Below are positions 6,201 through 28,361 of a stretch of 64,000 bases of DNA, one piece after another (the stretch's first letter is position 1; every line of letters begins with the position of its first letter). Position numbers and translations under genes: made by a program. The DNA lies in contig JBFOMH010000005.1 of assembly GCA_040830765.1 (NCBI GenBank), positions 96,001 through 160,000 on the forward strand, read 5' to 3'. The DNA is from Puniceicoccaceae bacterium (GTDB lineage: Bacteria; Verrucomicrobiota; Verrucomicrobiia; Opitutales; Oceanipulchritudinaceae). The notes below the pieces were generated by a model. The model ran no database searches. It was not told where the DNA came from and saw nothing but the letters and a program-made list of their open reading frames with translations.

Positions 6201-6789
6201 TGCCCGTGCCAACCAAGACAATGCGTCCATTATCAACGGCATAGAGATCCTCCCCTTTTGCCGGGTAGCGATAGTAGTCGAGCCATTCCGGATCCTCCGG
6301 GACGGTCATGTCGATAACCTGAAGGCCTCTGTACTGGTTGTAGAAAAACAAGGTATTGCCTTCCCATGCCCAGATGTCGGCCTCCTCAATCACCGGGTCT
6401 GAATCGCGCTTGCCGCCGGCCGCATCCTCGGTCATGTAGGCCCAGGCATTGGAAGAGGGCGGATACGCAACAAAGACATCGCCGGGGGCGGCCGAATTCT
6501 GGACCTTGCCTGCAAATGGGGACGCTGCGCTGTTGGCAAGAACCCTGAGCTCCGCAGAAGCGTATTCATCCGGAAGGGGAATCTTCAGCCACCCGGTATC
6601 GACTGCATCACGGTAACCGGAGGCAATGGCCAGCCAGCGGCCGGAATCCACGTCCTTGGCCTCGACGCGGACTTGTCGCACATCATCCTCGAGATGGAGC
6701 AGTACGGCTTGGCTGTTGTCCTGTGCGAATAAAGCATTTGCACTGGCGGCAGCGACCGCCAGCAGTGTCGTCGAATAATAGCGTATCAT
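3241..6789 (-). CDS. Secreted beta-propeller domain protein (Beta_propel-like) with aromatic-rich C-terminal domain
   Basis: Signal peptide; IEEADIW; GETLFASRFYGDTVYIVTFLFVDPLFSID...GELEVPGWSNYI; Trp/Tyr-rich last ~100 aa. Confidence 0.85.
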   Translation of the reverse strand: MIRYYSTTLLAVAAASANALFAQDNSQAVLLHLEDDVRQVRVEAKDVDSGRWLAIASGYRDAVDTGWLKIPLPDEYASAELRVLANSAASPFAGKVQNSAAPGDVFVAYPPSSNAWAYMTEDAAGGKRDSDPVIEEADIWAWEGNTLFFYNQYRGLQVIDMTVPEDPEWLDYYRYPAKGEDLYAVDNGRIVLVGTGNYWSEDKVALQFIDFDGTALTGVETVELEAGQYMDSRRYNDFLYVMTREWVEETNPEGNLSRAPLIRLYTIALSDAAPERVVDVQSFEGDGWLDAVLNAQPDGILLSLNKWHDRTTDWRFRWRSEVHVLVPGEDGILKQVGVAPLAGVIQDKYKMNFSDGLLTTISQQADWSTGQFSRATKLENFSLGDAGFTKIGSLDLAPGETLFASRFYGDTVYIVTFLFVDPLFSIDNSNPSHPVVAGELEVPGWSNYIEWVEGYLFAVGIEDRQLTVSIFDVADPANMSLKDRVFLSEDSWAWSEAQYDDQAISFFPDAGMLMLPFTTWAWSSSEMVQAMQLITWDETGLQLRGQVQHIDVPRRGVLRDNTVITISGREVVATDVTDPDVPVEGGATTLAWNVQHLIPNGDYWLQLESEESGYYFWRVPYNPAAVPDPILYVTAKDEPNVPMAEVSLAAGRLLGVTHRSDRLILLQDISEGPMPDYWQIPEKQSLAVRVYDISNPLEPVLLDEASVVGIPYLGGSFEAYMAGDGAIVWASNVQQAYIYWAIDIWPGPWYYPSNLSYLVSTVGASGEVAIPAHASYPTQDFWNYASGWFWEEPLLLASMTTYEEHERPDSYPDYKAYTTLIAVDFSDASKPVSYPRTGIPSHIVAVEPVQDGLNHYLYFEPQWNMVEVWGWDQASAFSLFKQKLYPDDTQNSYAYSLAWMAPFHLRSKYKYNDGEYANDLEIWYHEFAENRFQVTNSFTYENQWFASWAVREPEFLLSVRERVDIFRGDATNGTFLRNQQLEIEFPNIYSLNLDNAVLETDALYVPVGIYGVETMPIQTAVPAAAQYLSAGTSASGDWQVMDSAAWQLVGKTTTDAAGAVYGLQWLFHPDTMREIDTHATDAGDFWRESNWFGWYAHSLKDPAWLHHLEHGSLYAIVDANPELNGVYLWDDEIGFVWTQADTYPHLYAYERNQWLYYLNGSGTGDVRWFYDYGSGWFSLDRE

Positions 6790-8406: not shown

Positions 8407-8473
8407 CGGATAGGCAGCAGGCGGCGACAGTCCGCCTCGGGATATGTTTTGCGGCTCTATTTTCTCAGCCGTC

Positions 8474-9667
8474 ATGCGCTGCTTTCCAACCGGATTGCGG
8501 GCATTGGCGGTGTCACTCATCGGGTTGTCTCCTCTTTTGGGGCAACCGGTGGACTACTATGCCTCGGCAGTGGGACTTACCGGTACACCCCTGAAAACCG
8601 CCTTGGAGGGCATCATCGACGGGCATTCCGTCCTCTCCTACACACCTGGCGTCTGGGAAGCCCATAAGGACCTTTATGAGGATCCGGATAATCCGGCGAA
8701 CCTGATCCTGTTCTATTCCCAGGCCAGCATCTCCAAGGCCCTTCAGGATAGCGGATCGAGTCCGGGCACTTACTTCAACCGGGAGCACCTCTGGCCGAGG
8801 AGCTATGGTGTTGGTTCCTCGGGTGCCGACAACACCGACTTGTTTCACCTCGTACCGGCCTACAAGGGAGTCAACAGCGACCGGGGCAACCAGTATTTCG
8901 ATTACTCCGATCCCAATGCCAGCGGCTACGCCGATCCGGCCAACACCCTGGCTCCCGATTGTACCGAAGACAACAATTCCTGGGAACCGGCTGATGCCCA
9001 AAAGGGCTGGGTCGCCCGGGCCATGCTCTACATGACCACCCGCTACAATTACCTTGATCTGGTGGACACACCTCCCAGCCCCGCTCCCAACACCAGCAGC
9101 TCAAGAATGGCCCAGCTGTCCGTCATGCTGGAATGGAACCGCAAATTCCTTCCCTCCGACAAGGAAACCGACGTTTGCCAGCGCATTTTCGACAACTACC
9201 AAGGCAACCGGAATCCCTACATCGACTTCCCGGAGTTTGCCGACCTGGTCTGGGTGAGCGGACCCTCTTGGGGAGGATGGAGGATGGAGCACTTCTCCCT
9301 CCAGGAATTGACGGATGACCTCGTTTCCGGGGACCTTGCCGATCCCGATGCTGATGGCCTCAACAATCTCATGGAAATGGCCCGCTACTCCGATCCGCGG
9401 ACGCCGGAAACCGATACCGTCATTGATTTTATTGAGGACGGGGGCTCGCTCATCATACGCTTCATACGCGCCAATGACACCAACAACCTCAATCTGGACC
9501 TCATCCTTGAGGAGTCGCAGAACCTGGTCGATTGGGCACCGACCAGCCTTGAGGGTGCCAGTACCACATCACTCGACTCCAACCGGGAAAGAGTTGACGT
9601 ACAAGTGGTTGCCAGCCCTCAGGAGCCCCGCTTCTTCCGGTTGCGGGCTATCCGGCCTGCCCTTTGA
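8474..9667 (+). CDS. Secreted endonuclease I family nuclease (Bsn/YurI-like) with TSP3-like motif and verrucomicrobial C-terminal domain
   Basis: Signal peptide; NREHLWPRS, TDLFHLVPA, NSDRGN, KGWVARAMLYMTTRY, QGNRNPYID; DPDADGLNNLME; ESQNLVDW...RFFRL. ATG 8474 preferred over 8444. Confidence 0.9.
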   Translation: MRCFPTGLRALAVSLIGLSPLLGQPVDYYASAVGLTGTPLKTALEGIIDGHSVLSYTPGVWEAHKDLYEDPDNPANLILFYSQASISKALQDSGSSPGTYFNREHLWPRSYGVGSSGADNTDLFHLVPAYKGVNSDRGNQYFDYSDPNASGYADPANTLAPDCTEDNNSWEPADAQKGWVARAMLYMTTRYNYLDLVDTPPSPAPNTSSSRMAQLSVMLEWNRKFLPSDKETDVCQRIFDNYQGNRNPYIDFPEFADLVWVSGPSWGGWRMEHFSLQELTDDLVSGDLADPDADGLNNLMEMARYSDPRTPETDTVIDFIEDGGSLIIRFIRANDTNNLNLDLILEESQNLVDWAPTSLEGASTTSLDSNRERVDVQVVASPQEPRFFRLRAIRPAL

Positions 9668-9733
9668 GCCTTGCCAGCAGCGGCAACATTCATACCGATA
9701 GTTATCTGTCCCTAACTTGATCGAACTTTTCTT

Positions 9734-10309
9734 GTGCCCACATTCAAGCAGCAGCCATTCCTGATGCTCACCGCATTGGTCTCTTCCGCTATGGTGACCC
9801 CCGCCATGGGCAACTTCATCGATGGCGGACTCGAATGGCTCATGGTAACGGATTCCATCAACTTGGGATTCGAGGAAATGCAAGTGCAGCTGCAATCGGG
9901 AGGAACCTTCGAAGGCTACCGGCATGCCACCCTCGATGAGACGTGGACCCTGGCCAGTAACTTTGGGTATAATCCGGACTTGACTGCACTGGAGAATGCG
10001 GTGGCCGTCGAGAATCTGCACGAGGCCCTGGGAACGACCTTTGCCAGTAGTGCCGGTACGTTGCAGTTTTCCACCTTGGGATACATTGATGACGGTACCC
10101 GCTTCGACATTGTCCTGCAGCTCCCCATCCCGGACGATTCATCCACCTACCTCGGTGAAGCCTACCAGACCGATCTCGGCTTTCTTCCGCCACCGAGCAA
10201 CCTTATTGGCCATTACCTCGTCCGGCCGATACCGGAACCAGCCCATCTGGCTGCCATCTTGGGGCTGCTTGCTCTCTCGTTTCTGATTCGAAGGCATAGG
10301 ATCCGGTAA
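9734..10309 (+). CDS. PEP-CTERM sorting-domain protein
   Basis: Signal peptide; GLEWL...GYRHAT core; C-terminal IPEPAHLAAILGLLALSFLIRRHRIR. Confidence 0.85.
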   Translation: MPTFKQQPFLMLTALVSSAMVTPAMGNFIDGGLEWLMVTDSINLGFEEMQVQLQSGGTFEGYRHATLDETWTLASNFGYNPDLTALENAVAVENLHEALGTTFASSAGTLQFSTLGYIDDGTRFDIVLQLPIPDDSSTYLGEAYQTDLGFLPPPSNLIGHYLVRPIPEPAHLAAILGLLALSFLIRRHRIR

Positions 10310-10311
10310 AC

Positions 10312-10342
10312 AAAAAAGCCCCGTCGCATGGACGGGGCCTTG
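10312..10342 (-). terminator. Intrinsic terminator between convergent PEP-CTERM genes (possibly bidirectional)
   Basis: Stem GCCCCGTC (10318-10325) / GACGGGGC (10331-10338), 5-nt loop; A6 at 10312-10317 gives a U-tract on the minus strand. Confidence 0.8.
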
Positions 10343-10364
10343 AAAAGTAATTGATTGCCAATTC

Positions 10365-11087
10365 TTACTTGCGGCGCCGGTAGGCGACGTAAGCCAGACC
10401 AATCAGGCCAAGGATGGCCGCATAGGTGGACGGCTCAGGGACAATCGGATTAACCGAACCAAAGGTACTGGGAGTTACGGTCGGATCGATGTCAAATACG
10501 CTCCCGGCAATTGGAGTTGCATCCAAAGCGAAAACATCTGTTCCAGCCGGATCATTTACCGCATACCATGCGTTAGTGACACCATCACGAAACACACTTT
10601 GCGGCTCGTCTCCAGTGTAACTGAAATCACTTCCACCCATGGCTACTCCATAAATGGTTGCTTCGTCCCCAACGTTATCTGGAACACCAAGGGCATCATA
10701 AATTGTCCCAAAAAAGGACAGATCGGGTGCTCCCCCAGTTTCTATAGTAGTAACACCGACTGTTCCTGTGAAAGTTTCGGTGATGGCAACTGTAAAGGAG
10801 GGATTCTCCAAGTCAGGCATTGAGAGCACTAGCAAACCGTTACCATCGAAGACAGTAGCGTTACTTGTGAAATCTGCTGCACGATCAACTGTGCCAAACG
10901 GGGATGTTGCATCCGATTCGATCGAAATGACCCAGCCCTGAAACAAAGCGCCAGGAGTTCCTTTAAGCTCGATATCAACATTAGCAGGATCGGTTCCAGT
11001 CGGATTTGGCTGGAATTCGTTAATTAAAATTTGCCCGTGTCCAATACTTGCGCCGAATAGGGCTAATAGTAGAAGTGCTTTTTTCAT
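10365..11087 (-). CDS. PEP-CTERM protein with lamin-tail-like (LTD) domain
   Basis: Signal peptide; ILINEFQPNPTGTD...IELKGTPG; C-terminal VPEPSTYAAILGLIGLAYVAYRRRK. Confidence 0.9.
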   Translation of the reverse strand: MKKALLLLALFGASIGHGQILINEFQPNPTGTDPANVDIELKGTPGALFQGWVISIESDATSPFGTVDRAADFTSNATVFDGNGLLVLSMPDLENPSFTVAITETFTGTVGVTTIETGGAPDLSFFGTIYDALGVPDNVGDEATIYGVAMGGSDFSYTGDEPQSVFRDGVTNAWYAVNDPAGTDVFALDATPIAGSVFDIDPTVTPSTFGSVNPIVPEPSTYAAILGLIGLAYVAYRRRK

Positions 11088-11170
11088 AGTAGATAGGTTC
11101 TAATTAGGAGTTTACCCTTAGTTGACACTTCGGATAATCTTCAACACTCCTTCCGAAAGCAACCCAATAA

Positions 11171-11198
11171 TGTCACAATTCAGTTAAATGGAGTTAGA
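11171..11198 (-). promoter_or_regulatory. Candidate Pho-box-like direct repeat upstream of the LTD PEP-CTERM gene
   Basis: Minus strand TCTAAC-N4-TTTAAC-N5-TGTGAC (10-11 bp period), just upstream of a TTGCTT candidate -35. Confidence 0.3.
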
Positions 11199-11202
11199 AA
11201 TC

Positions 11203-14200
11203 CTAAAACGAATACCGCATCCCGACCTGGATAGCCCAGCGGGAGGCCAAACCAGTGGGTAATTGGTAAAAAAGCGCCTCACTGGCCTGGACGGATTCCT
11301 GGTAGCGGTATTCATAGAAACCAAACTCGTTCCCCTTGTCGCCTCGTGGGATTGGCTTGTAGGAAGGGGCGACGATATTGACCGCCCGTCCGAAACTGCC
11401 CTTGGGCCGTTTCACGAGTCCCCACTCATCATTGATGAGGTTACCGACATTCTGGATATTGAGGATCAGTTCCACTTTATGCCCGCGCCAGATGGGAATT
11501 TCCTGGGTGATATTGATATCGAATTGGTGGATAAAGGGGGCGCGACCGGTATTCCGGGGAAGAATCTGGCCCTTGTACTCCCTGAGACCCGGGGTGGAGT
11601 CGACAAACTCCATGAACGCCACTCCTTCGGTATCGCGAACGCTGTCATTACGACCCCAGGCGACAAGCGGATCATCGAGTCCGGTCGGAATGTAGATAAG
11701 GTCGTTGCCAGTATTGCCGTCCTTGTTGATATCCACATTGAGGCCACCATAAAGGTAGGAAAAGGGCCGGCCGCTGCGGCCGTCATAGATCACGCTCATG
11801 CGGGTCTTCCACTTATTCCACCAGGGAATCTCAACCGTTACCGAACCGATGATGCGATGCCGGGTCTCAAATGAACTGGTACCCAGGATGGCATCATTGG
11901 GATTCGGGGCGACATTGGCGATCCAGTTGGTGTAGGCGGATGGGCTGGAAGCATCATTGACGGTCTTGTTGATAGTGTAGGTGTACCCGAGGCGGTAACC
12001 CCACCAGTCCTTGACCGGCCGTTGAAGTTCAATCGTATACTGGCTGCCGTGGCCCTTGGAAGTGTTCTTCAATTCAAGGACATCGCGGTATCCCGACTCG
12101 CGCCACCGGTCATCGCTGAGACCCGTGTTCGTGTAGACCTCACGCCCGTCCGGCAAATATCCCTTGAAGAAACCGCTTTCATTCAGCTGCAAGTTGTTAT
12201 TCACGTAATGAATATCCTGCTGGGTCTTGGACCACTGCAGTTCCAGCGTAAGGATGGAATCAAAGAGAAAGTCGAGCCGCTGGTCGACAGCGAGGTTGGC
12301 TTTCCAGTCGGTCGGCATCTTGAATCCATCCGTCAGGTAATTGACAACAACGGAACTGGCCTCGCTGCGGCCGTAGGCATCATCAATCCAGGCCACGGCC
12401 TCCATCGGATCAAGAGTGAACGGGGGGCTGACCTGGTTGGTATTGGAGGCGACAAAAACCTTGCTGACCCCGTTGTTGACATAGGCATTGGAAAGCCAGA
12501 CATGCGGTGCCGTACCAAAGAAGAGTCCGATCCCACCACGCAGCTGGGTATCACGGTCTTCGAACGGTTTGTAGTTAAACCCAATGCGCGGCTGGATGAC
12601 ATAATTCCCGTCGATTGTATTGGTGTTGGTCTGGCCGAACACTTCCTCGAAGCTACGCGGCGGATCGTCCGTGGAGGGACGTGCCTCCGACGGCTCGTCA
12701 TCCACCAACGGGTAATCAATCCGCAGGCCGGCGGTAATGTTCAGCCGGTCTGTGACAAACCAGTTGTCCTGGACGTAAGCGGCAGCGATGGCCATCGACC
12801 AGTCGGCGATACCGGTTTCCCCATCGCCAGGTATTTCAACGGAAAAGTTACTGGCCCGGCCCGGCGAGGTATTTCCCTGCTCGTCTGTTTCCAATGCCCC
12901 GACGTAACCGTCATTGTTCTCGGCCGAGCCGACGCCACGGAAGAACCAGCTGCCGATGGGATTGGAAAAGAACGACTGGGTATTGTCGTAATTTTCATAC
13001 TGCAGCCCAAAGGCCAGTTGGTGGTCGCCCAGCAACCAGGTTCCCTTGAATTGGGCAATCAGCGTGTTGACCTGCAGATCATTAAGGGTACCCCGTCCAA
13101 AGGTGACGGTCCGGGAACCACCAACCTCATCATCCGTGTCCTTGATTCCCTGGATACTGACCTCCGTCAGGTCCTCATCGTATTGCAGGTTTCTTGTCTG
13201 TTCCTTGTAGGAGACCCGCAATGAGGTTGTGAATTCCGGAGTCCAGTTGCTGAACAGTTCCACAACGTAGTCATCCAGTCCATACGCGGTCCGGTACCAG
13301 GCTGTATTGAAACTGGTGCCACGGGACCCGGGAAATTGGGGATCGCTGCCAGGGGTCGTGTTGTAGCGGAAAGTTGCCCGGTGCCGGTCGGTAATGTTCC
13401 AGTCCAGCTTGATGAGCAACTTCTCATCCTCGAGTGTGTAGGAATCCGGATCATCGAGGATTCCCGGATCAAATGGGGTGACGAAATTCTGGGAGGCGTT
13501 GACGATATCAGCAATCTGATTCGGATCGGCGAGGAATTCCGACTCCTCCCGCACCCGTGTCTCCTCGACCATCTCGTAAAGAATGAAAAAGAAGAGTTTG
13601 TCCTTGATGATGGGACCGCGCAGGGAAATCCCAATGGTGTACTCCTCAAAGTCATCAAAGGGAATCAAGTCCCCGGAACCAATTTCATACAAGTCACCCA
13701 CCATGCTGGCGTCCCGATAGTAGCCGAAGACGGAGCCGTGGAACTCATTGGAACCGCTCTTGGTGACAGCCGTGATGGCTGCGCCGGTAAAACCGGCATT
13801 CTCAACCGAATACGGGGAAAACTGGACGCTCACTTCGGCAATTGCCTCAAGGGAAAATGGCTGCTTGAGCGCTGGCAGGCCACTTTCACTCAGACCGAAG
13901 GAGTCATTGGTCGGAACACCATCAATCAGGAGTGAGTTGTAACGCGTATTTTTGCCGCCGGCCGACAACTGGCCCGAATCCCGGTCAAATACCGCAATCC
14001 GCGAGTCCAGCTTGGCGATATCACTCAAGGAGCGTGTCACTGAGGGAATATTGCGGATTTCCTCCTCGCTGACCCGGGAACCCGAACCTTGGTTGGAGCT
14101 GATGAAAATGAGGCTCTGGTCCTCGGCCATGACCTCAAACGCTTCCAGTTCAAACACTTCCTCACCCTCTGCCCGCAGGCGCATGTTGACATCCGTGGTC

Positions 14201-14508
14201 TGCTGCAAGCCGAGGGAAATACCGTCCCTTACTCCTGGATCAAATCCAATCGCCTCTACCTCTACCCGGTAGGGTCCCCCTACCCGCATCCCGCCCATGC
14301 GGAAGTGTCCTTTGTCGCTGGTACGGGCGCTGTAACTCGTCCCCGTTGGGACGTGAGTTGCCCGGACCTGTGCGTTGCTGACCGGAGCTCCTGTGGAGTC
14401 CATGATGGTGCCAGCCATGTTGGAGGTCGTGACATCCTGTCCTAAGGAAAGGACGGGAAAAAAGGCAAGGGAGAGAAGACAAGACAGGAAGAAGCGCACG
14501 GTCTTCAT
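11203..14508 (-). CDS. TonB-dependent receptor, Oar-like, with N-terminal carboxypeptidase-regulatory-like domain
   Basis: ATHVPTGTSY...GMRVGGPY; RYNSLLIDGVPTNDSFGL; GFTGAAITAVTKSGSNEFHGS; QPRIGFNY; C-terminal IQVGMRYSF. Confidence 0.93.
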   Translation of the reverse strand: MKTVRFFLSCLLSLAFFPVLSLGQDVTTSNMAGTIMDSTGAPVSNAQVRATHVPTGTSYSARTSDKGHFRMGGMRVGGPYRVEVEAIGFDPGVRDGISLGLQQTTDVNMRLRAEGEEVFELEAFEVMAEDQSLIFISSNQGSGSRVSEEEIRNIPSVTRSLSDIAKLDSRIAVFDRDSGQLSAGGKNTRYNSLLIDGVPTNDSFGLSESGLPALKQPFSLEAIAEVSVQFSPYSVENAGFTGAAITAVTKSGSNEFHGSVFGYYRDASMVGDLYEIGSGDLIPFDDFEEYTIGISLRGPIIKDKLFFFILYEMVEETRVREESEFLADPNQIADIVNASQNFVTPFDPGILDDPDSYTLEDEKLLIKLDWNITDRHRATFRYNTTPGSDPQFPGSRGTSFNTAWYRTAYGLDDYVVELFSNWTPEFTTSLRVSYKEQTRNLQYDEDLTEVSIQGIKDTDDEVGGSRTVTFGRGTLNDLQVNTLIAQFKGTWLLGDHQLAFGLQYENYDNTQSFFSNPIGSWFFRGVGSAENNDGYVGALETDEQGNTSPGRASNFSVEIPGDGETGIADWSMAIAAAYVQDNWFVTDRLNITAGLRIDYPLVDDEPSEARPSTDDPPRSFEEVFGQTNTNTIDGNYVIQPRIGFNYKPFEDRDTQLRGGIGLFFGTAPHVWLSNAYVNNGVSKVFVASNTNQVSPPFTLDPMEAVAWIDDAYGRSEASSVVVNYLTDGFKMPTDWKANLAVDQRLDFLFDSILTLELQWSKTQQDIHYVNNNLQLNESGFFKGYLPDGREVYTNTGLSDDRWRESGYRDVLELKNTSKGHGSQYTIELQRPVKDWWGYRLGYTYTINKTVNDASSPSAYTNWIANVAPNPNDAILGTSSFETRHRIIGSVTVEIPWWNKWKTRMSVIYDGRSGRPFSYLYGGLNVDINKDGNTGNDLIYIPTGLDDPLVAWGRNDSVRDTEGVAFMEFVDSTPGLREYKGQILPRNTGRAPFIHQFDINITQEIPIWRGHKVELILNIQNVGNLINDEWGLVKRPKGSFGRAVNIVAPSYKPIPRGDKGNEFGFYEYRYQESVQASEALFYQLPTGLASRWAIQVGMRYSF

Positions 14509-14557
14509 ATCGGTAGTTTGGACTGGGTTTGCTGGATTTGGTTAGGAAAAGGCAAGA

Positions 14558-14583
14558 ACGGCCCCGCAGTTACGCGGGGCCGT
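14558..14583 (-). terminator. Intra-operon GC-rich hairpin (weak terminator or mRNA stabiliser)
   Basis: Perfect 10-bp stem ACGGCCCCGC/GCGGGGCCGT, 6-nt loop; followed on the minus strand by the imperfect tract TCTTGCCTTTT. Confidence 0.65.
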
Positions 14584-14607
14584 CCAGCCTCAAAGAAGGA
14601 TCCGCTA

Positions 14608-17403
14608 TCAGGGTTGCGGATCGAGGAAGTTGTTAAAGGTCCCGTCGAAATAAATGAAGAAACCTCCATTCGACTCGACGAGCCAGGCCCACTTGCCGGC
14701 GCTGTAGTGGTAAATCCACGAACCGGCCCGGATATCATCTCCACTGAAGTAGAAATACCCGAAATTTGGACTGTAGATGTACGGATAGCCGGCAGTGTAG
14801 ACAAAGCCCATCGTGATGCTGTAGGACCAGCCCGGTGTGTACCGGTAGAGGAAGCTCAGGTTGACGTTGTCGACCCATCCGGAATCGAATTCCGAGATCA
14901 GCACCTCGTGAACCTGGTAAACAGCACCATCGCCGCCACCCGTTCCGGTGGAGACATAGTGGAAGGCAAGGTTGATCGTCTGGTCGACATAGGCCGAGAG
15001 ATCAATTTCACCGGAGTCCACCAGTTCGTAGTCGCCCTGCGACAGGGCTCCACCAACAGCATTCCATGTAGCTGTAGCCGGATTAAGGCCATCATAGTTC
15101 GTTGAAACAAGAACCTCCAGCGGAGGACCACCGAAGTTCCGCGCCGTCTGGTAGGTGAGTTCCGGGTTGGCGGTACCTGACAGGTCAATGTCCGGGGAAA
15201 TCAACCAGTCGTCACTGGCAGTGTCACCACCGAATCCATTGGCCGCGGCGTAGCCGTTGCCACTGAATTCGCCCCATGTCCAATCGCGGTTGCTGGCCAG
15301 GCTGACAGCGGAGAAATCACCAAGGTCTACCTCGAAGTCCTCAAAGAAGATGACGTCATCATAGATGGAAACTTCGTGTACCTGGTAAACGGCACCATCG
15401 CCCCCACCCGTCCCGGTGGAGATGTAGTGGAAGGCCACGTAGACAGCCTCTCCAATGTAAGCCGAGAGGTCGATGATACCGGAATCCACCAGTTCATAGT
15501 CGCCTTGTGACAAGGCCCCACCGAGGGCGGTCCATGTTGCCGTCGCCGGATTGAGCCCATCATAGTCCGTCGAAATCAGGACCTCCAGTTCCGGACCACC
15601 AAAGTTGCGGGCCGTCTGGTAAACCATTTTCGGATCAATCGCAGTGGCGAGACTGACCTGCGGGGAAATCAACCAGTCATCGCTGGCAGTGTCGCCACCG
15701 AAGCCATTGGCCGCAGCATAGCCGTTGCCACTGAATTCACCCCATTCCCAGTCACGGTTGCTGGCCAGGCTGACGGCAGTGAAGTCACCAAGGTCGACCT
15801 CGAAGTCTTCGAACAAGAAGACGCCGGTGGCCGGGGGTACATCGTAGACGAGGAAGTCATGGACTTGCCAGACGGGTGCTTCGCCAGGACCGGTACCTGC
15901 GGAAAGATAACGGAAGGCTACATGAACGGTCTGCCCAATGTAAGTGGACAAATCGATCATGCCCGACGGGATAATGTCGTAGTCGTCTGCCGAAAGCGTC
16001 GCCGCTAATGGAGTCCATTCAGCCAAGGCCGGATTGACCCCATCAAAGTTGGTGGAAATCCAGACATCAATGTCCGGGCCATCGAAGTTCTTGGCCGTAT
16101 TGAAGAGCAGTGTTGGCTCAGTTGTTCCGGCAAGGTCAATCGCCGGGGAAATCAGGTAGTCATCACTGGCCACGTCTGCACTGAAGCCGTTGATATCGGC
16201 AAAACCATTTCCACCAAAGGTATTGTGGTTCCAATCCCGATCACTGGCCAGGCTGACGGTTGTAAAGTCACCCAAGTCGACTTCAAAGTCTTCATAGTAG
16301 ACAGTTGCGAGATTCGGCGTAACGACGAACAGCGAGGAGACGGAGACGTCATTGCCGGACCCGGCTGATCCGATGTCAATGACCCCGTTGGAAGTCGTGG
16401 CATCGACGGTGAATGTAATGGAACTTGCGCTGACAATCGTGAAGTCAACATTCACGCCACCGACTTGTACGGAAGTGACGACGTCCAGGTCAGCACCGGA
16501 AATTCTTACAGTGTCACCGGGATAAGCAATGGTCGGACCGAAGCTGAAGAGGTCAACCGCAGCAGCGGGGCTGGCGGGATTGGCTGAGCCTGGTGTGTCA
16601 AGGGCCGGGCCATTGAAGTCATCCCCCATGAAGAGGCCTGTTCCCTCGTCGTTGAGAAGGTTGAATTCGCCAATGTTCCATTCATTGTCGTCACTACCCC
16701 GATAGATCATACCGGGAGTAAAGCTGCCATCCGGGCCGACATCCTCGAATCCGAGGGCAGCTCCATATACGAACTCCTCCGGATTGGAGTCATTCGGCAC
16801 CTCAACCAGACCAACGGCGTCAACTACCAATGTCCATGGCAGGGGCCGGGGTGTAACCGCCACCATGTTAATGTCATCAAAATCATCAACATGGTTCAGA
16901 ATGCCGTCGTTGTCGTCATCGATATCAACGGCGAGGTCATCATACTGGGAAGCAAGGTCCAGAACCTCGATCCCCGTGTAGCCAGTACAGAGGATGTGGG
17001 TGACATTGTCCGAATTCTCGAAATTGATATCAACTGTATCATCAATATCGAGTGCCGTAATACCCAGGGCTTCAAACTGGATATCAACGGTCGAAATCAG
17101 GAGATGGCCGTCATCGGGAATAACGTAACCAGTCAGGTCGAGAGCGAACTCAACCGTAGCCGCTCCCTTGTCGGGGACGTTGTCCCCGTTGGGATTCTGG
17201 AAGGAACTGTGGTCACCGATGACAAGGTACCAGTGGTTGTCGAGTGATTCACCGGGTGTACCCTTGATCTCAAAAAATTCATTACTGTCCGTTCCACCCG
17301 GCTCATCCTGCCGGATTTCATTGATCTGCAGACCGAAAACGGTCGAGGATGCCAGTGCGGTGAGGCAACCGATAAACGATAGGTATCGTGGGTTTATCTT
17401 CAT
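14608..17403 (-). CDS. Secreted surface protein: LTD + IPT/TIG-like + 3x choice-of-anchor J (cleaved-adhesin-like) + aromatic C-terminal domain
   Basis: Signal peptide; LQINEIRQDEPGGTDSNEFFEIKG; PGDTVRISGADL; 3x [FY]EDFEVDLGDF..VSLAS.RDW...DD[WY]LISP...DLS.Y.G..V..AF.Y. Confidence 0.85.
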   Translation of the reverse strand: MKINPRYLSFIGCLTALASSTVFGLQINEIRQDEPGGTDSNEFFEIKGTPGESLDNHWYLVIGDHSSFQNPNGDNVPDKGAATVEFALDLTGYVIPDDGHLLISTVDIQFEALGITALDIDDTVDINFENSDNVTHILCTGYTGIEVLDLASQYDDLAVDIDDDNDGILNHVDDFDDINMVAVTPRPLPWTLVVDAVGLVEVPNDSNPEEFVYGAALGFEDVGPDGSFTPGMIYRGSDDNEWNIGEFNLLNDEGTGLFMGDDFNGPALDTPGSANPASPAAAVDLFSFGPTIAYPGDTVRISGADLDVVTSVQVGGVNVDFTIVSASSITFTVDATTSNGVIDIGSAGSGNDVSVSSLFVVTPNLATVYYEDFEVDLGDFTTVSLASDRDWNHNTFGGNGFADINGFSADVASDDYLISPAIDLAGTTEPTLLFNTAKNFDGPDIDVWISTNFDGVNPALAEWTPLAATLSADDYDIIPSGMIDLSTYIGQTVHVAFRYLSAGTGPGEAPVWQVHDFLVYDVPPATGVFLFEDFEVDLGDFTAVSLASNRDWEWGEFSGNGYAAANGFGGDTASDDWLISPQVSLATAIDPKMVYQTARNFGGPELEVLISTDYDGLNPATATWTALGGALSQGDYELVDSGIIDLSAYIGEAVYVAFHYISTGTGGGDGAVYQVHEVSIYDDVIFFEDFEVDLGDFSAVSLASNRDWTWGEFSGNGYAAANGFGGDTASDDWLISPDIDLSGTANPELTYQTARNFGGPPLEVLVSTNYDGLNPATATWNAVGGALSQGDYELVDSGEIDLSAYVDQTINLAFHYVSTGTGGGDGAVYQVHEVLISEFDSGWVDNVNLSFLYRYTPGWSYSITMGFVYTAGYPYIYSPNFGYFYFSGDDIRAGSWIYHYSAGKWAWLVESNGGFFIYFDGTFNNFLDPQP
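14895..16300 (-). repeat. Three tandem ~156-161 aa coding repeats
   Basis: Anchor CTGGCCAGGCTGAC at 15293, 15761 and 16244 (periods 468 and 483 bp). Confidence 0.9.
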
Positions 17404-17426
17404 TTGTGCTTATTGTGTTATGGTTA

Positions 17427-19025
17427 CTAGATTAGGTTGGGCTCGAGAATATACTGCCCGGATGAGGGCGAATAAAACCATCTCTGGGGGCTTTGGCTAT
17501 CTTTAATGTAGTAAAGCCATCCATTTGTGCTGCTGAAGAGGTAGGGATAATAGGTAATTCCTGTAAAAAGCCAACCCAGGGAGGAATCGTAAAACCAGAA
17601 AGCCGCCTCCGAGAGGCTGTCGGCGTAAATCCATTTATGTTCAAGGTGGTAAAACCAAGGGGCATCGGCCGGCTTGAGAAAGCCAAACCAATCGGATAGG
17701 TGCCAGCCCTCGGGATATCCCTCAGAGTAGGTAAAGAGATGCAAACCTCCGGCATCATGAACAGCCGGATCAAACACAACCTCGACTGGTTCTGTTCCGG
17801 GGGCATCGCGGCTGACAACAATCCGGTAGTAGGCCGGACGGGATGTGTCGGCGGGAGCATGTTGGAGCCCGGCATAGTAGTAGACTCCCCGGTCTGCGAG
17901 CAGCAGGTCCCGCTCCGTATATGGAATCTCTGTCCAAGCATCCTCTGAGAGAGGATTGGTGGCGTATTCGACGCTGTAGCTCAGATGAGAGGCCTCCGGC
18001 TCCTTAATAAAGCTGAACTCGAGAAAATTGACGTCTCCGTTTCTATCAACCTTGGGCAGGTCCTCTGTCGTCACAACTTCCGGATCTGTTTGCAGGGCAA
18101 ATTCCATCAAGTTCAAAATCCGATCGAGGTCCGGGTCCACAAGCGGATCGACAATCGCCGGATCCTCAAGTTGGGCCAGGGAAAATTCCCGAACCCGCCA
18201 AGCGCCCCAAGTCAGGTAATCAGTTCCCGTGTAGACAGCATCAGCAAGGTCGGGGTAATCGACAAACGGATTCCGGTTAAGCTGGAAGATGACTGAATTC
18301 TCTACCCGGATCCCGGAATAAATGAGATGATTTTTCCTGCGCTCCCTCTCATCCGGCGGAAATTGGCGGTTCCATTCCAAAAGAGTCGTCAACTTCCCCA
18401 TCCGGTTGTCCCAACTGGCCGGGTCGTCGGAGAGCTTGAAGTCACCCGTGATGTTGGAGGCATCATAGCGGGTGTCCATATACAGAAGCGCCCGTGCGAT
18501 GCGTCCCTTGTCGGCGTCCCGTGGCTCGACCAGGCGGAGCCCGCTACTGCGAATGGAATCCGGGGCATTGCGTAGGGGTGTCCCGCTGGCCAGCTCATCG
18601 TAGGCGAAATTGGAGCGGTCCTCATTGGTCAGCGGATCGGCTGGAAAGAGGTGGTGGGCATCACTGTAGGCGGGTCCCGCATCAGCGCCATACGATTGTG
18701 GCCAGGTGTGCTCACGATTCCAGAAAGTGAATAATCCGTCGTTGGGGACCGAAGTACCCGAATAGAGCAGCAGGATATTATTCTCGTTCTCCGGGTCCTT
18801 GTCATATTCCTGGAAAGCGAGGGCGATGTTGTTGTAGCTCTGGACGATGTGCCCGTCGATGATCTCATGCAGGGCCGACTTCAGGGAGTCGCCAAGAAGG
18901 CCCTCGGCGGACGAATAATAATCCTCCGGCGGCCCATAATCCTGCCCGGACAGGCTGGAAACAAGGGCCAGAGCGGCCAGGGAAGAGAGACAAACTGTTG
19001 ATTGGAGCCGATGAGAAACTGGCAT
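17427..19025 (-). CDS. Second secreted endonuclease I family nuclease, with TSP3-like motif, FYR-type domain and aromatic C-terminal domain
   Basis: NREHTWPQS, SDAHHLFPA, NEDRSN, KGRIARALLYMDTRY, NRNPFVDYP; DPDLDRILNLMEF; SDWFG...WFYHLEHKW. ATG 19025 preferred over TTG 19049. Confidence 0.9.
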   Translation of the reverse strand: MPVSHRLQSTVCLSSLAALALVSSLSGQDYGPPEDYYSSAEGLLGDSLKSALHEIIDGHIVQSYNNIALAFQEYDKDPENENNILLLYSGTSVPNDGLFTFWNREHTWPQSYGADAGPAYSDAHHLFPADPLTNEDRSNFAYDELASGTPLRNAPDSIRSSGLRLVEPRDADKGRIARALLYMDTRYDASNITGDFKLSDDPASWDNRMGKLTTLLEWNRQFPPDERERRKNHLIYSGIRVENSVIFQLNRNPFVDYPDLADAVYTGTDYLTWGAWRVREFSLAQLEDPAIVDPLVDPDLDRILNLMEFALQTDPEVVTTEDLPKVDRNGDVNFLEFSFIKEPEASHLSYSVEYATNPLSEDAWTEIPYTERDLLLADRGVYYYAGLQHAPADTSRPAYYRIVVSRDAPGTEPVEVVFDPAVHDAGGLHLFTYSEGYPEGWHLSDWFGFLKPADAPWFYHLEHKWIYADSLSEAAFWFYDSSLGWLFTGITYYPYLFSSTNGWLYYIKDSQSPQRWFYSPSSGQYILEPNLI

Positions 19026-19066
19026 AAGGTATCCTGACAAGAAGGGCAAATAAGATGCAACCGGAG

Positions 19067-19199: not shown

Positions 19200-20567
19200 A
19201 TGGCAAATGGTATGGGTATGCAATTGGACGATGGATCACGGGTGGCGATTGTCGGCGGCGGACCGGCGGGATCCATGTTTTGTTATTTTCTCCTCCAGAT
19301 GTCGCGTCGGATGGGCTTTGAGCTGGTAGTCGATGTCTATGAGCCGCGCGAGTTCAGCCGCCCGGGACCGGCCGGTTGCAACAACTGCGGGGGCATCATC
19401 TCGGAATGGCTCGTCCAGGCACTGGCCATGGAAGGTATCAATCTGCCGGACAAGGTGGTCCAGCGCGGGCTGGAGTCCTATTCCATGCATCTCGATGCCG
19501 GTTCGGTGAATATCGAGACGCCCCACCACGAGAAACGGATTGCCACGGTCCACCGGGGTGGCGGGCCGCGGGACGTCAAGGAGAGCACATGGGGCAGCTT
19601 TGATGCCCATGTCTTTGCGATGGCCCAGGAAGCCGGAGGCAACTGGGTCCGCAACAAGGTTGTGGAGCTGCAGTACGCGGAGGACTCCATCCAGGTAACC
19701 CCGAACAACGAGGATCCAGTTGACTACGATCTCGTCGTCATGGCCACCGGGAAACGGACCCAGGCGCTAAAGATGCTGCAAAAGCTGGATATTGGGTTTG
19801 CCCCACCGGTCATGGCCAAGGCCTACATCAGCGAAATTCACATGGGCAACGCCGAAATTACCAAGGAACTGGGCAATTCCATGCACCTTTTCCTGCCGGA
19901 CATTCCCAATGTGAAGTTCGGGGCCCTCATTCCGAAGGGGGATTATGTCACTTTCTGCATGCTGGGGAACAAAATTACCAATGATGCCGTTTCCGCTTTC
20001 ATCAACTTGCCGGAAGTCCGGGGGTGCATGCCGGCCGGTTGGGTGGTTCCGGAAAAGATGTGCCATTGTTCTCCCGGACTGGCTATCAAGGGTGCCACCA
20101 AGCCCTATGCGGATCGAATTCTGTGCGTCGGCGACTGTGGCGTCAGCCGGCTCTACAAGGATGGGATTGGGGCTGCCTACCGGGCGGCCAAGGCGGCCGC
20201 GGTGGCGGTTGTCCATGAAGGCGTCTCAGAGGCGGCCCTGGAGAAACACTACTGGCCCACCCTGCGCAACATTGCCAACGACAATAACTATGGTAAAGTG
20301 ATCTTTGAAGTGACGAAACTGGTCCAGAAGGTGCCCATGATCCGCCGCGGTGTATTGCGGATGGTCCGGCGGGAACAGGCCCATCCGGAGCGACCCCAGC
20401 GGATGAGTGAGGTCCTGTGGGACACCTTTACCGGTAGCGCTCCCTACAAGGATGTTTTCCTGCGCACCCTGAATCCCCTTTTCTTCCTGCAGTTCGGCTG
20501 GGATATCGTAGCCGGCCTGTTCAGTTTCAAAACCGAAAAAAGGAGTCTGGCCCATGAAGGAGGGTGA
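19200..20567 (+). CDS. FAD-dependent oxidoreductase, geranylgeranyl-reductase-like
   Basis: VAIVGGGPAG; GCNNCGGIIS; VGDCG...KDGIGAA second FAD motif; TATACT -10 candidate at 19165-19170. Confidence 0.8.
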   Translation: MANGMGMQLDDGSRVAIVGGGPAGSMFCYFLLQMSRRMGFELVVDVYEPREFSRPGPAGCNNCGGIISEWLVQALAMEGINLPDKVVQRGLESYSMHLDAGSVNIETPHHEKRIATVHRGGGPRDVKESTWGSFDAHVFAMAQEAGGNWVRNKVVELQYAEDSIQVTPNNEDPVDYDLVVMATGKRTQALKMLQKLDIGFAPPVMAKAYISEIHMGNAEITKELGNSMHLFLPDIPNVKFGALIPKGDYVTFCMLGNKITNDAVSAFINLPEVRGCMPAGWVVPEKMCHCSPGLAIKGATKPYADRILCVGDCGVSRLYKDGIGAAYRAAKAAAVAVVHEGVSEAALEKHYWPTLRNIANDNNYGKVIFEVTKLVQKVPMIRRGVLRMVRREQAHPERPQRMSEVLWDTFTGSAPYKDVFLRTLNPLFFLQFGWDIVAGLFSFKTEKRSLAHEGG

Positions 20568-20928
20568 ACTGGGAAAAGTGTATCAGGATGGCGAGCTGGT
20601 CGTCCGCCAAGGAGAAGTCGGTAATTGCATGTACGTCATCCAGGCCGGCGAGGTGGAAATTTTCCGCGAGGAAGATGGACGCGATATCCGACTCCGGGTC
20701 GCCGGGCCAAATGAGTTTTTTGGGGAGATGGCCCTGGTGGAGAATGATGTCCGCTCGGCCAGCGTCCGCTCGCTCGGGGAATCCCGCATCCTCCATGTAG
20801 ACAAGCGGACCTTTATGCGCCGAGTCCACGAGGATCCCTCCCTGGCCTACCGGATCATGGAGTCGCTCTCCCACGAAATCCGCCGGTTGGCTGCTGAACT
20901 GGGAGAACTGAAGGCAGAGTCCAGTTAA
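20554..20928 (+). CDS. Stand-alone cyclic nucleotide-binding domain protein
   Basis: QGEVGNCMYVIQAGEVEI; phosphate-binding cassette FGEMALVENDVRSASV; no HTH; 14-nt overlap with the upstream gene. Confidence 0.9.
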   Translation: MKEGELGKVYQDGELVVRQGEVGNCMYVIQAGEVEIFREEDGRDIRLRVAGPNEFFGEMALVENDVRSASVRSLGESRILHVDKRTFMRRVHEDPSLAYRIMESLSHEIRRLAAELGELKAESS

Positions 20929-20938
20929 GCTTTGCCAC

Positions 20939-25743: not shown

Positions 25744-25761
25744 TTTCGAAATCTCCGGTGA

Positions 25762-28223: not shown

Positions 28224-28361
28224 TTGGTAATCCCTTTCATGCCGCGGTTTTATCAAACCGTTGCCAAACTGAAAGGAATTTCCAATCAGCAATGCTTATT
28301 AAGCGACCTGCTTAAAGTAAGAATAACTTATCCTAATTCAGCTGCCAGGTATCCGCCCCAC

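Follow-up and report, generated by a model that had tools for sequence, protein, structure and literature searches.

We describe a locus in the 97%-complete, 3.99-Mb genome of a Puniceicoccaceae bacterium whose core consists of three genes in a fixed order: a tailed endonuclease I, a choice-of-anchor-J (CAJ) surface protein, and a TonB-dependent transporter (TBDT). We cautiously favor the reading that the locus is a Puniceicoccaceae-specific counterpart of Ddb-type loci, which would cleave extracellular DNA and/or RNA at the cell surface and then import the fragments in a TonB-driven manner. The triad looks like a marine-type verrucomicrobial family's own version of the DNA-eating loci of gut Bacteroides. 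The features of the locus are given below in coordinates of the window, which is the whole stretch of 64,000 nucleotides analyzed.

8444-9667, plus strand: Nuc1, a 407-aa endonuclease I with no aromatic tail (PF04231, 106.5 bits)
9734-10309, plus strand: 191-aa PEP-CTERM ORF between Nuc1 and the 240-aa gene (TIGR02595, 17.4 bits)
10315-10341, minus strand: terminator-like hairpin 3' of the 240-aa gene (11-bp stem with 7 GC pairs, then a T run)
10365-11087, minus strand: 240-aa acidic PEP-CTERM protein (TIGR02595, 18.7 bits)
11203-14508, minus strand: 1101-aa TBDT of the CarboxypepD_reg/Oar type (PF13620, 71 bits; PF25183, 191 bits)
14556-14585, minus strand: terminator-like GC-rich hairpin between the CAJ and TBDT genes (13-bp stem with 10 GC pairs, then a T run)
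14608-17403, minus strand: 931-aa CAJ surface protein (NF038128, 149.7 bits, in three stretches)
17427-19049, minus strand: Nuc2, a 540-aa endonuclease I with an aromatic C-terminal tail (PF04231, 113.5 bits)

The sequence-only reading of this DNA had described two paralogous endonuclease I genes at the locus ends and a minus-strand run in the order nuclease, 931-aa protein, TBDT, and 240-aa PEP-CTERM protein. The PF04231 matches and the ORF coordinates agree with both statements, and the genes exist and are placed as described, whereas the "LTD" label given to two of the proteins was not matched by the Pfam model. The end coordinates reported at the time, 8474 and 19025, are internal ATGs of the Nuc1 and Nuc2 ORFs. 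The stated lack of a SusD also holds, with no SusD-family match in any ORF scanned in and around the locus. Nuc1 is convergent with the minus-strand run and lies 38 nt from an upstream SDR-like gene. A gap of 99 nt separates the CAJ gene from the TBDT gene, its neighbor on the same strand. A genome search placed the only two PF04231 genes of this organism and its only CAJ matches, three separate ones, inside the locus, and a TonB gene is found within the window. Two items were absent from the earlier description: the strong hairpin between the 931-aa and TBDT genes and the 191-aa PEP-CTERM ORF. The latter scores above the TIGR02595 cut-off of 16 bits, is unrelated to the 240-aa family, has no Pfam match, and is conserved (75% identity) in the nearest relative only; its membership of the system is uncertain.

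The gene order is conserved across a well-delimited clade of transporters. TBDT orthologues occur in 14 of 37 Puniceicoccaceae genomes and, at E<=1e-200, in none of 300 other genomes of the class, and the orthologue clade, at >=41% identity, is set apart from generic Oar-type receptors, for which identity falls sharply to <=36%. In all 11 genomes with upstream DNA, the gene immediately upstream of the TBDT gene, on the same strand, encodes a CAJ protein (contigs of the remaining 3 of the 14 end at or inside the TBDT gene), and a tailed nuclease is found upstream of the CAJ gene in 9/9 loci. The co-location of TBDT and nuclease proposed from this one locus is thus upheld among its orthologues, and the order of the triad is fixed across four genera, with TBDT identities of 48-88%. 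Seven loci with TBDT paralogues of ~35% identity have neither CAJ nor nuclease neighbors. Elsewhere in the class, the genomes sampled did not yield the triad, and the flanks of 15 endonuclease I loci and 11 CAJ loci there likewise held no TBDT homologue (0/15 and 0/11).

Both nucleases score far above the PF04231 cut-off of 25 bits and have signal-like N-termini. They are paralogues, 39% identical over 346 residues (E 6e-57), and Nuc2 is built from an N-terminal signal-like segment, a catalytic domain at ~54-266, a middle domain, and a ~100-aa aromatic C-terminal domain. The NREH...N142...R145...N147 columns are invariant across 11 homologues, and Nuc1 keeps the same columns, which we take to be the catalytic and Mg-binding residues. 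With these motifs intact, Nuc1 and Nuc2 look like active nucleases, a prediction made from their sequences. Direct phmmer searches with Nuc1 and with Nuc2 gave no matches, and the nuclease family profile matched Vvn (1OUO) and EndA (E 2e-11), with the second motif aligned with ...NGDRSN of Vvn. Like Nuc1 and Nuc2, Vvn of Vibrio vulnificus (1OUO) and EndA (2PU3, 2G7E) are PF04231 members that keep the core motifs; however, the alignment of these structures with Nuc1 and Nuc2 is limited to the C-terminal half, and the nucleases of this locus differ from them in being acidic (pI 4.4-4.5) and in having extra C-terminal domains.

The TBDT has the Oar-type architecture previously assigned to it, with a CarboxypepD_reg domain and a PF25183 barrel. 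Oar itself has an N-terminal CarboxypepD_reg domain, as does the TBDT here. The Plug match is weak (17.7 bits against a cut-off of 23.9), and the SusC signature TIGR04056 is not among the profile matches of the TBDT. Beyond its orthologues, the TBDT is closest to generic Oar-type receptors of Opitutales and Lysobacter, with no Bacteroidota protein among the 120 best named homologues.

The 931-aa protein consists, in order, of a signal-like segment, an unnamed LTD-like domain of ~260 aa, a TIG domain (present in 7/7 orthologues), three CAJ repeats, and the aromatic C-terminal domain. The three CAJ stretches recognized earlier are borne out, as the NF038128 score compares with a cut-off of 30 bits. 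Homology links the CAJ repeat with the CAJ/DUF5017 domain at the C-terminus of DUF5689 (DdbD-type) proteins (hhalign 99.9%, E 4.5e-31), and among the matches listed, 85 of 120 shorter CAJ homologues carry PF18942 (DUF5689). PF18942, the proposed DNA-binding domain of DdbD, was not found in this genome at E<=10. DUF5689 was also considered as the identity of the N-terminal domain of the 931-aa protein and rejected, the two profiles being unrelated (hhalign 4.7%). The 931-aa protein has a net charge of -123, with 2-3 basic residues per CAJ repeat, and basic residues number only 3 in the mature 240-aa protein. This extreme acidity argues against simple binding of the DNA backbone and makes the proposed capture of nucleic acids by the accessory proteins doubtful. 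The aromatic C-terminal domain, common to the 931-aa protein and Nuc2, is a lineage-restricted domain of ~100 residues matched in about 32 ORFs of the genome, Nuc2 included, and it has no match among solved folds.

The 240-aa protein and the N-terminus of the 931-aa protein have one unnamed domain of ~200 aa in common (hhalign 97.5%, E 6e-12), and it was to these that the "LTD" label had been given. We could not sustain that label, since the Pfam LTD model PF00932 matched neither of them even at E<=10, nor, at E<=0.01, any of 40 family members or 7 orthologues. A relation drawn through a neighbor with a sub-threshold LTD match reached an hhalign probability of 20%, and Atlas leads to LTD clusters scored 0.90 by features and TM 0.46 by structure. 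The AF2 model of the 240-aa protein (pLDDT 92.7) is a beta-sandwich domain, and it aligns with the lamin B1 Ig domain 7dtg over 88 residues (Z 4.6, rmsd 3.0), as many other sandwiches do equally well. Its top structural match is the DUF4876 lid BT1938 (4q1z; Z 7.3, rmsd 4.1, 164 residues), at a Z that is common for unmatched models according to the tool, and no sequence similarity to BT1938 was detected. BT1938 is described as a predicted TBDT lid (DUF4876; bioRxiv 10.1101/2023.03.17.533168). Like the 240-aa gene, the genes of DUF4876 putative lids (BT1938 with BT1939) encode surface proteins beside a non-SusC TBDT; unlike the 240-aa protein with its PEP-CTERM tail, BT1938 is a lipoprotein.

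Family members of the 240-aa protein are 40-63% identical and comprise PEP-CTERM forms in Verrucomicrobiota and Planctomycetota and T9SS forms in Flavobacteriia. In 5/16 long metagenome loci, EEP, 5'-nucleotidase, or RNase T2 enzymes are fused to the unnamed domain or encoded next to it, and in one short metagenome locus the domain adjoins endonuclease I. The PEP-CTERM tail noted earlier is present by TIGR02595 (cut-off 16 bits), with PF07589 at 18.5 bits falling under its cut-off of 20.7. The 240-aa gene does not hold up as a conserved component of the system, as the nearest relative has a different cargo on the same anchor; the protein is an accessory part that is not conserved.

The hairpin at 10315-10341 marks the end of the minus-strand run. 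An equivalent of the CAJ-TBDT hairpin, of different sequence and in the same position, was found in 9/9 orthologous loci folded, and since this strong hairpin is conserved, the three genes may not form one transcript. Oligo-dT metatranscriptome contigs cover all genes of the locus at >=99% identity, one of them bridging the Nuc2-CAJ junction, and contigs over the 240-aa gene had the highest depth in 4/4 RNA-library runs. The runs holding the locus are labeled as host-associated (mollusc) metagenomes.

The locus had earlier been interpreted as a capture, cleavage, and import system for nucleic acids as a putative P, N, or C source, of which the co-location of the parts and the Bacteroidota parallel stand, while the "LTD" identity, capture by accessory proteins, and a conserved role for the 240-aa protein are not supported as proposed. 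For localization, substrate, partner binding, transport direction, and physiological purpose, we infer the following course. Nuc2 and the CAJ protein would be exported and held at the surface by their common aromatic C-terminal domain, and Nuc2 would cut polymeric nucleic acid near the transporter. The CAJ protein would act as the transporter's extracellular partner, in the manner of DdbD or of a "lid," and the 240-aa protein may do likewise where it is present. Oligonucleotides would then enter the periplasm through the TonB-energized CarboxypepD_reg TBDT, and the anchorless Nuc1, whether periplasmic or released, would complete their cleavage. Use of the products would be completed by PhoD-type enzymes, for which the genome has two genes, and by further transporters; neither 5'-nucleotidase_C nor PhoX turned up in this genome, which is 97% complete.

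A different purpose would be natural transformation as in Riemerella anatipestifer, with the CAJ protein and the TBDT carrying DNA through the outer membrane, the nucleases processing it, and its recombination depending on ComEC and DprA. The adjacency and domain types match those of Riemerella, which needs both its CAJ/DUF5689 protein and its CarboxypepD_reg barrel for transformation (PMC8459023), and the CAJ domains of the two systems are homologous. The genome does encode ComEC and DprA, but this says little because both also register in non-competent controls such as E. coli, and a search for a ComEA-type HHH_3 domain gave no match. A pair of dedicated endonuclease I genes, of which one encodes a probably surface-anchored protein, suits the destruction of DNA better than its preservation, and gut Bacteroidales with ddb loci did not consistently take up DNA (PMC12478041); we consider a role in transformation quite improbable. 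It is similarly a long shot that Verrucomicrobiota, too, have the TonB-powered machine for DNA uptake through the outer membrane that is known only from Bacteroidota, and that it moves DNA itself across this membrane with lineage-specific parts. An acidic lid-like domain would stand in for DUF5689 and endonuclease I for EEP nucleases, and the previously undescribed ~100-residue aromatic C-terminal domain would serve surface sorting. If true, these bacteria would possess pilus-independent competence along with a nucleic-acid food source.

It is conceivable, if rather unlikely, that the nucleases are extracellular and non-nutritional, remodeling DNA-containing biofilm or host mucus or clearing host DNA, and that the TBDT exports or places tailed proteins as in the Oar-PopC case or carries another substrate. 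Protein secretion in Myxococcus xanthus is reported to require the TBDT Oar (PMC6434023), the conserved CAJ-TBDT hairpin suggests separate expression, the mollusc label of the runs points to a host, and the acidity of the accessory proteins speaks against DNA capture. On the other hand, a three-gene order that stays fixed over such a range of TBDT identity argues for a shared task, and deletion of ddb abolished nucleobase production from DNA (PMC12478041). Since the TBDT clade is tied to only two of the ~32 tailed ORFs, a general export role is unlikely. The absence of the linkage elsewhere in the class would fit adjacency through shared ancestry only, with unrelated secreted proteins co-inherited in one family and no functional coupling, and the positive loci are related rather than independent because all come from one family. 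We nonetheless regard this as very improbable: the triad keeps its tight spacing across genera whose flanking genes differ, the CAJ repeat count ranges from 1 to 3 among loci with the arrangement never lost, and parts of the same three kinds come together in independent systems of Bacteroidota (PMC12478041, PMC8459023).

Nucleic-acid cleavage and import thus remains our preferred, if guarded, reading, and it can be set against known systems. The literature search yielded no description of such a system in Verrucomicrobiota, in keeping with the sequence-only reading. SusC/SusD loci follow the same logic of surface binder, surface hydrolase, TonB-dependent import, and periplasmic hydrolysis; unlike them, this locus has no SusD and no lipoproteins, an Oar-type TBDT, and a predicted nucleic-acid substrate. 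Oar is needed for export of the PopC protease and is not known beside nucleases or CAJ proteins.

The closest known systems are ddbABCDEF of Bacteroides thetaiotaomicron (Sharan et al. 2025, PMC12478041) and the Riemerella CarboxypepD_reg-TBDT/CAJ pair (PMC8459023), so that the Bacteroidota parallel drawn in the sequence-only reading exists and is characterized. In Riemerella, a CarboxypepD_reg barrel gene (RA0C_RS04915) lies next to a CAJ gene (RA0C_RS04920), as here, with a nuclease gene beside the pair (PMC12478041). That pair was shown to be necessary for transformation; the Riemerella partner has DUF5689 and DUF5017 with a single CAJ-type domain, and its gene order and anchors differ from those here. 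The locus ddbABCDEF (the BT3560-3563 region of PMC8851478) encodes secreted nucleases, the TBDT DdbC, and the DUF5689 protein DdbD and is needed for DNA depletion, while DNA is poor as a sole C, N, or P source for B. thetaiotaomicron (PMC12478041). The genomics of PMC12478041 concerns Bacteroidota only, with DdbC homologues taken at BLASTp >50% identity and >75% coverage, whereas this locus is from Verrucomicrobiota. The nucleases here are endonuclease I, as opposed to the EEP family drawn for BT3562 and BT3563 (PMC8851478). DUF5689 is replaced here by an unrelated acidic domain and TIG, up to three CAJ repeats are present, unlike in ddb, and the anchors are the aromatic C-terminal domain and PEP-CTERM instead of lipoprotein signals. 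Nevertheless, both loci combine several secreted nucleases, one with an anchoring signal and another without, with a TBDT and an adjacent non-enzymatic surface protein and no SusD, and the CAJ repeats of this locus have a homologue in the CAJ/DUF5017 domain at the C-terminus of DdbD-type proteins.

In marine and host-associated habitats, much phosphorus, nitrogen and carbon is stored in extracellular DNA and RNA, and to our knowledge the outer-membrane import of their breakdown products is poorly known in Gram-negative bacteria outside Bacteroidota. Our ORF listing and family scans largely bear out the inventory of the sequence-only reading, which had described twin endonuclease I genes (PF04231; here Nuc1 and Nuc2), a choice-of-anchor-J (CAJ, NF038128) protein, an Oar-type TonB-dependent transporter (TBDT) and a PEP-CTERM protein. 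Its claim that SusD is lacking also holds, as no ORF scanned in and around the locus matched the SusD family. All six locus products start with a signal-like hydrophobic segment, read by eye in the sequences.

Features of the locus and its surroundings (ORF listing and family scan; beta-propeller protein, family scan)
3241-6789, minus strand: beta-propeller protein, 1182 aa, PF09826, two genes from Nuc1
8444-9667, plus strand: Nuc1, endonuclease I, 407 aa
9734-10309, plus strand: 191-aa PEP-CTERM ORF
10365-11087, minus strand: 240-aa PEP-CTERM protein
11203-14508, minus strand: TBDT, 1101 aa, CarboxypepD_reg and PF25183 barrel
14608-17403, minus strand: 931-aa protein, TIG domain and three CAJ repeats
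17427-19049, minus strand: Nuc2, endonuclease I, 540 aa
17430-17759, 14611-14940 and 3244-3573, minus strand: the three window copies of the aromatic tail

The locus is flanked by unrelated genes, among them those for an SDR-like protein, the beta-propeller protein, an FAD oxidoreductase, a second TBDT and a FeFe-hydrogenase cluster. The second TBDT (781 aa, weakly similar to copper and haem receptors) adjoins a small cNMP-binding protein (20554-23284), NuoF-like and NuoE-like subunits accompany the FeFe-hydrogenase (23980-28292), and 28362-30074 encodes an ATP sulfurylase/APS kinase fusion. Nearly half of the window is a single minus-strand ORF of 9918 codons (34168-63924), which adjoins a TonB gene on the plus strand (33546-34181).

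When we compared the flanks of TBDT orthologues by tblastn and blastp, we found that the transporter travels with the CAJ protein and a nuclease. The orthologue itself (E<=1e-200, 48-88% identity) is present in 14 of 37 genomes of the family (Puniceicoccaceae, Opitutales), belonging to 4 of 15 genera, and at the same threshold in none of 300 other sampled genomes of the class; in a large protein database, its clade stops sharply at 41% identity, with generic Oar-type receptors following at 36% or less. Directly upstream of the TBDT gene, on the same strand, all 11 genomes with upstream DNA possess a gene for an unnamed domain of ~200 aa, a TIG domain and one to three CAJ repeats (in the other 3 of the 14, the contig stops at or inside the TBDT gene). 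Directly upstream of the CAJ gene, and thus two genes from the TBDT, a Nuc2-type nuclease with an aromatic tail follows in 9/9 genomes whose contig is long enough, while none of the triad neighbours accompanies the TBDT paralogues of ~35% identity at seven loci, including one of the same genome. The sequence-only reading would have been refuted by TBDT orthologues lying apart from nucleases elsewhere, and these results do not refute it. In one orthologous locus (L027, genome G015, 11664-13403), the CAJ gene matches in two reading frames, which suggests a frameshift or an assembly error.

The remaining genes are less constant. A Nuc1-type gene is close to the triad, at differing positions, in the nearest relative G010 and in G015 and G019, and was not seen in the fetched flanks of G009, G002 and G004; only G009 and G004 have a full-length neighbour homologue of the 240-aa gene. 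The slot after the TBDT in G010 is taken by an unrelated 222-aa protein (L023, 7498-8166, minus strand), and the last 25 residues of the two proteins, the PEP-CTERM anchor, are 96% identical, as if the anchor had been kept and the cargo exchanged. Across the class, 15 of 301 sampled genomes have endonuclease I, and none of 15 endonuclease I loci (13 genomes) has a TBDT, CAJ or unnamed-domain homologue in its flanks; CAJ is found in 12 of 201, with no TBDT or nuclease homologue in the flanks of 11 CAJ loci (10 genomes; this count omits two contig-edge matches of G207). The class as a whole does not share the nuclease/CAJ/TBDT linkage.

A gap of only 23 nt separates Nuc2 from the CAJ gene, a GC-rich hairpin with a 13-bp stem and a T run after it lies between the CAJ and TBDT genes, and a second hairpin after the 240-aa gene closes the minus-strand run. 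These features suggest that the likely transcription units are Nuc2-CAJ, then the TBDT, by read-through or from its own promoter, and then the 240-aa gene. Since an equivalent hairpin, different in sequence each time, occupies the same position in all nine orthologous loci folded, the TBDT may not simply be co-transcribed with the Nuc2 and CAJ genes. Contigs at >=99% identity cover the locus in four runs: three are oligo-dT metatranscriptomes, and the other, belonging to a second study, is only guessed to be RNA. The sample label of these runs is mollusc metagenome, and the Nuc2-CAJ junction is spanned by one contig (16845-17714). In all four runs, contigs over the 240-aa gene (window 10300-11300) were deepest, 10- to 50-fold above the neighbouring genes, but because contig depth is a poor measure, we take this only as a hint of strong expression of the 240-aa protein; depth was otherwise not used for gene ranking, and uncovered stretches were left uninterpreted.

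Nuc1 and Nuc2 share 39% identity over 346 residues (E 6e-57), and the 3.99-Mb, 97%-complete genome has no other PF04231 match. Neither single sequence matched a solved structure with phmmer; a profile of 11 homologues from related loci matched Vvn (1OUO, 1OUP) and EndA (2PU3, 2G7E, 2VND) at E 2e-11 to 2e-8. In the alignment of these homologues, NREH, N142, R145 and N147 (Nuc2 numbering) are invariant, and we take these columns, following the Vvn literature, to be the general base and the Mg2+ ligands. Both nucleases possess a ~100-residue domain after the catalytic core, whereas only Nuc2 ends in an aromatic tail, ~100 residues long and 27.6% W, Y and F.

The tail, with the consensus GW..S.WfG...PW..H..HGW.Y...YD..LG.W..T...YP..Y....W.YY.....RWFY...G.W, matches no Pfam or NCBIfam model. 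A profile of the three window copies found 32 genome ORFs at E<=1e-3 (these three and 29 others), and in 24 of them the domain stops no more than 15 residues from the C-terminus. An alignment of 29 sequences gave a confident all-beta model (pLDDT 88.8) for which no convincing counterpart was found among solved folds, either by Foldseek (best E 0.56) or by a wide structural search (best Z 3.4). In the class sample, 3/201 genomes had matches: at least 23 in this genome (23 of 130 candidates scored), 6 in one congener and 1 in a genome of another family of the order, such that the tail is nearly confined to this genus among the genomes sampled. Its behaviour is that of a C-terminal domain restricted to one lineage, which would serve in sorting or attachment. 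The 1182-aa beta-propeller protein also has a Nuc2-type tail, and its position is kept in the nearest relative. Tailed proteins could be exported by the TBDT, given the role of the Oar TBDT in PopC export (PMC6434023). However, about 30 proteins have the tail, yet this TBDT clade accompanies only two of them, which makes an export role less likely.

The 240-aa and 931-aa proteins had been described as lamin-tail domain (LTD) surface proteins, a label that we discard at the HMM level. The Pfam LTD model (PF00932) fits neither protein even at E<=10, and at E<=0.01 it matches none of 40 members of the 240-aa family and none of the 7 orthologues examined for the 931-aa protein. Over its first ~280 residues, the latter is homologous to the 240-aa family (hhalign 97.5%, E 6e-12, 202 columns; BLASTP E 2e-4), so both accessory proteins have one and the same unnamed domain. 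Members of the 240-aa family are 40-63% identical and end in PEP-CTERM anchors in Verrucomicrobiota and Planctomycetota, whereas those of Flavobacteriia and other Bacteroidota have a T9SS sorting domain; the acidic ~200-aa domain is a cross-phylum family with swapped anchors. An NCBIfam match to 'M949_1556 family lipoprotein' rests solely on that family's CAJ-like C-terminal part and was set aside as evidence for a Riemerella DdbD homologue.

The AlphaFold2 model of the 240-aa protein is all-beta (pLDDT 92.7), and Foldseek returned nothing below E 1e-3 and only antibody-like rows above it. In a wide structural search, the top match was the DUF4876 protein BT1938 (4q1z; Z 7.3, rmsd 4.1, 164 residues), and the lamin B1 Ig domain reached only Z 4.6. 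BT1938 is proposed to be the extracellular lid of the non-SusC TBDT BT1939 (bioRxiv 10.1101/2023.03.17.533168). Since Z 7.3 is within the range common for unmatched models, we treat this likeness as a lead only. The accessory proteins are extremely acidic, with a net charge of -123 in the 931-aa protein, 5 basic versus 54 acidic residues in the unnamed domain, 2-3 basic residues in each CAJ repeat and 3 in the mature 240-aa protein; only ~9% of genome ORFs of at least 300 aa have a pI below 4.5. This composition makes direct electrostatic DNA binding unlikely, and possible roles are DNA binding bridged by divalent cations or that of a transporter lid.

A search with the 240-aa family returned 46 metagenome loci (L041-L086). 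By tblastn, an endonuclease I homologue was found in one of them, beside the family gene on the short contig L073, and a homologue of the locus TBDT in none. In the 16 long loci, 111 ORFs lie within 5 kb of the match; our scan took in 68 of these, leaving out shorter and more distant ones. The unnamed domain is fused to 5'-nucleotidase and EEP domains in L067 and L075, adjoins 5'-nucleotidase/EEP-type enzymes in L076 and L083, and lies 4 kb from an RNase T2 in L055, while no company of the nucleotidase, EEP or RNase type was seen in the other 11. Taken as raw counts, this genomic company appears to give independent support for a nucleic-acid link. Some metagenome loci encode giant proteins that begin with this domain and also contain 5'-nucleotidase, EEP, choice-of-anchor-I and RTX domains.

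Surface cleavage and TonB-dependent import of nucleic acid would be the best-supported function of the locus. Surface-anchored Nuc2 would cleave extracellular nucleic acid, the fragments would be imported TonB-dependently through the TBDT with the CAJ protein as its partner, and the anchor-less Nuc1 and PhoD-type enzymes, of which the genome encodes two, would process them further. Co-folding of CAJ repeat 1 (residues 372-520) with the TBDT barrel minus its plug (residues 252-1101) gave no prediction (score 0.00) and is neutral on binding. Parts of the cleavage-and-import model are weakened by the acidity of the accessory proteins, by the conserved hairpin, by 5'-nucleotidase_C and PhoX not being found in the genome, and by DNA being a poor sole nutrient in the Bacteroides model (PMC12478041). 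Alternatively, the module could serve natural transformation, since ComEC and DprA are present in the genome. However, both are also present in non-competent control genomes, and a ComEA-type HHH_3 domain was not found in this one. These results neither favour nor disprove a transformation role, which we regard as improbable overall. Capture, cleavage and import, as proposed in the sequence-only reading, remains a plausible interpretation of the locus, strengthened by the conservation of the triad and by a recently characterised analogue, although the extreme acidity leaves the capture step doubtful.

The three genes offer a target for genetics in cultured Puniceicoccaceae, and two unnamed domain families merit biochemistry: the aromatic C-terminal domain and the acidic ~200-aa domain, which in several phyla turns up repeatedly next to nucleases and nucleotidases.

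Among known systems, ddbABCDEF of Bacteroides thetaiotaomicron comes closest; it is the characterised counterpart of the Bacteroidota DNA-degradation loci mentioned in the sequence-only reading. That locus encodes three nucleases of demonstrated activity, the TBDT DdbC, DdbE and the DUF5689 protein DdbD, for which a capping role on DdbC and a resemblance to a DNA-binding HIN domain are predicted; deletion of the locus abolished DNA depletion and nucleobase production (PMC12478041). The same authors relate DdbC and DdbD to RA0C_RS04915 and RA0C_RS04920 of Riemerella (PMC12478041), which are both essential for natural transformation and are described, respectively, as a barrel with a CarboxypepD_reg domain and a choice-of-anchor-J protein that also contains DUF5689 and DUF5017 (PMC8459023). 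The genomics in the Ddb paper concerns Bacteroidota only (PMC12478041), and our literature search, which covered main texts, turned up no account of a locus like this in Verrucomicrobiota, in line with the earlier statement that no characterised example is known in the phylum.

A CAJ-repeat search of shorter proteins found, among the 120 matches listed, at least 85 Bacteroidota proteins of ~405-470 aa with PF18942 (DUF5689), most of them also with PF16409 (DUF5017). A profile of 30 such proteins aligned with a CAJ repeat of the 931-aa protein (99.9% probability, E 4.5e-31, 161 columns) and was unrelated to the unnamed domain (4.7%), and PF18942 was not found in the genome. One Bacteroidota metagenome locus (L061), which combines a TBDT with a 354-aa lipoprotein and with a T9SS protein containing the unnamed domain, was considered as a bridge to Ddb and ruled out, since the lipoprotein is not DUF5689-like and the TBDT is dissimilar to that of the locus. 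Given CAJ homology without a DUF5689 counterpart, the two systems have in common the kinds of parts and one homologous domain, whereas the presumed DNA-binding module, the anchors and the nuclease family (endonuclease I here, EEP for BT3562 and BT3563 in a figure legend, PMC8851478) all differ. Altogether, the Puniceicoccaceae nuclease-CAJ-TBDT module would show that the Ddb-type design, described in 2025, is not limited to one phylum, and that the CAJ domain, rather than DUF5689, is its cross-phylum common part.
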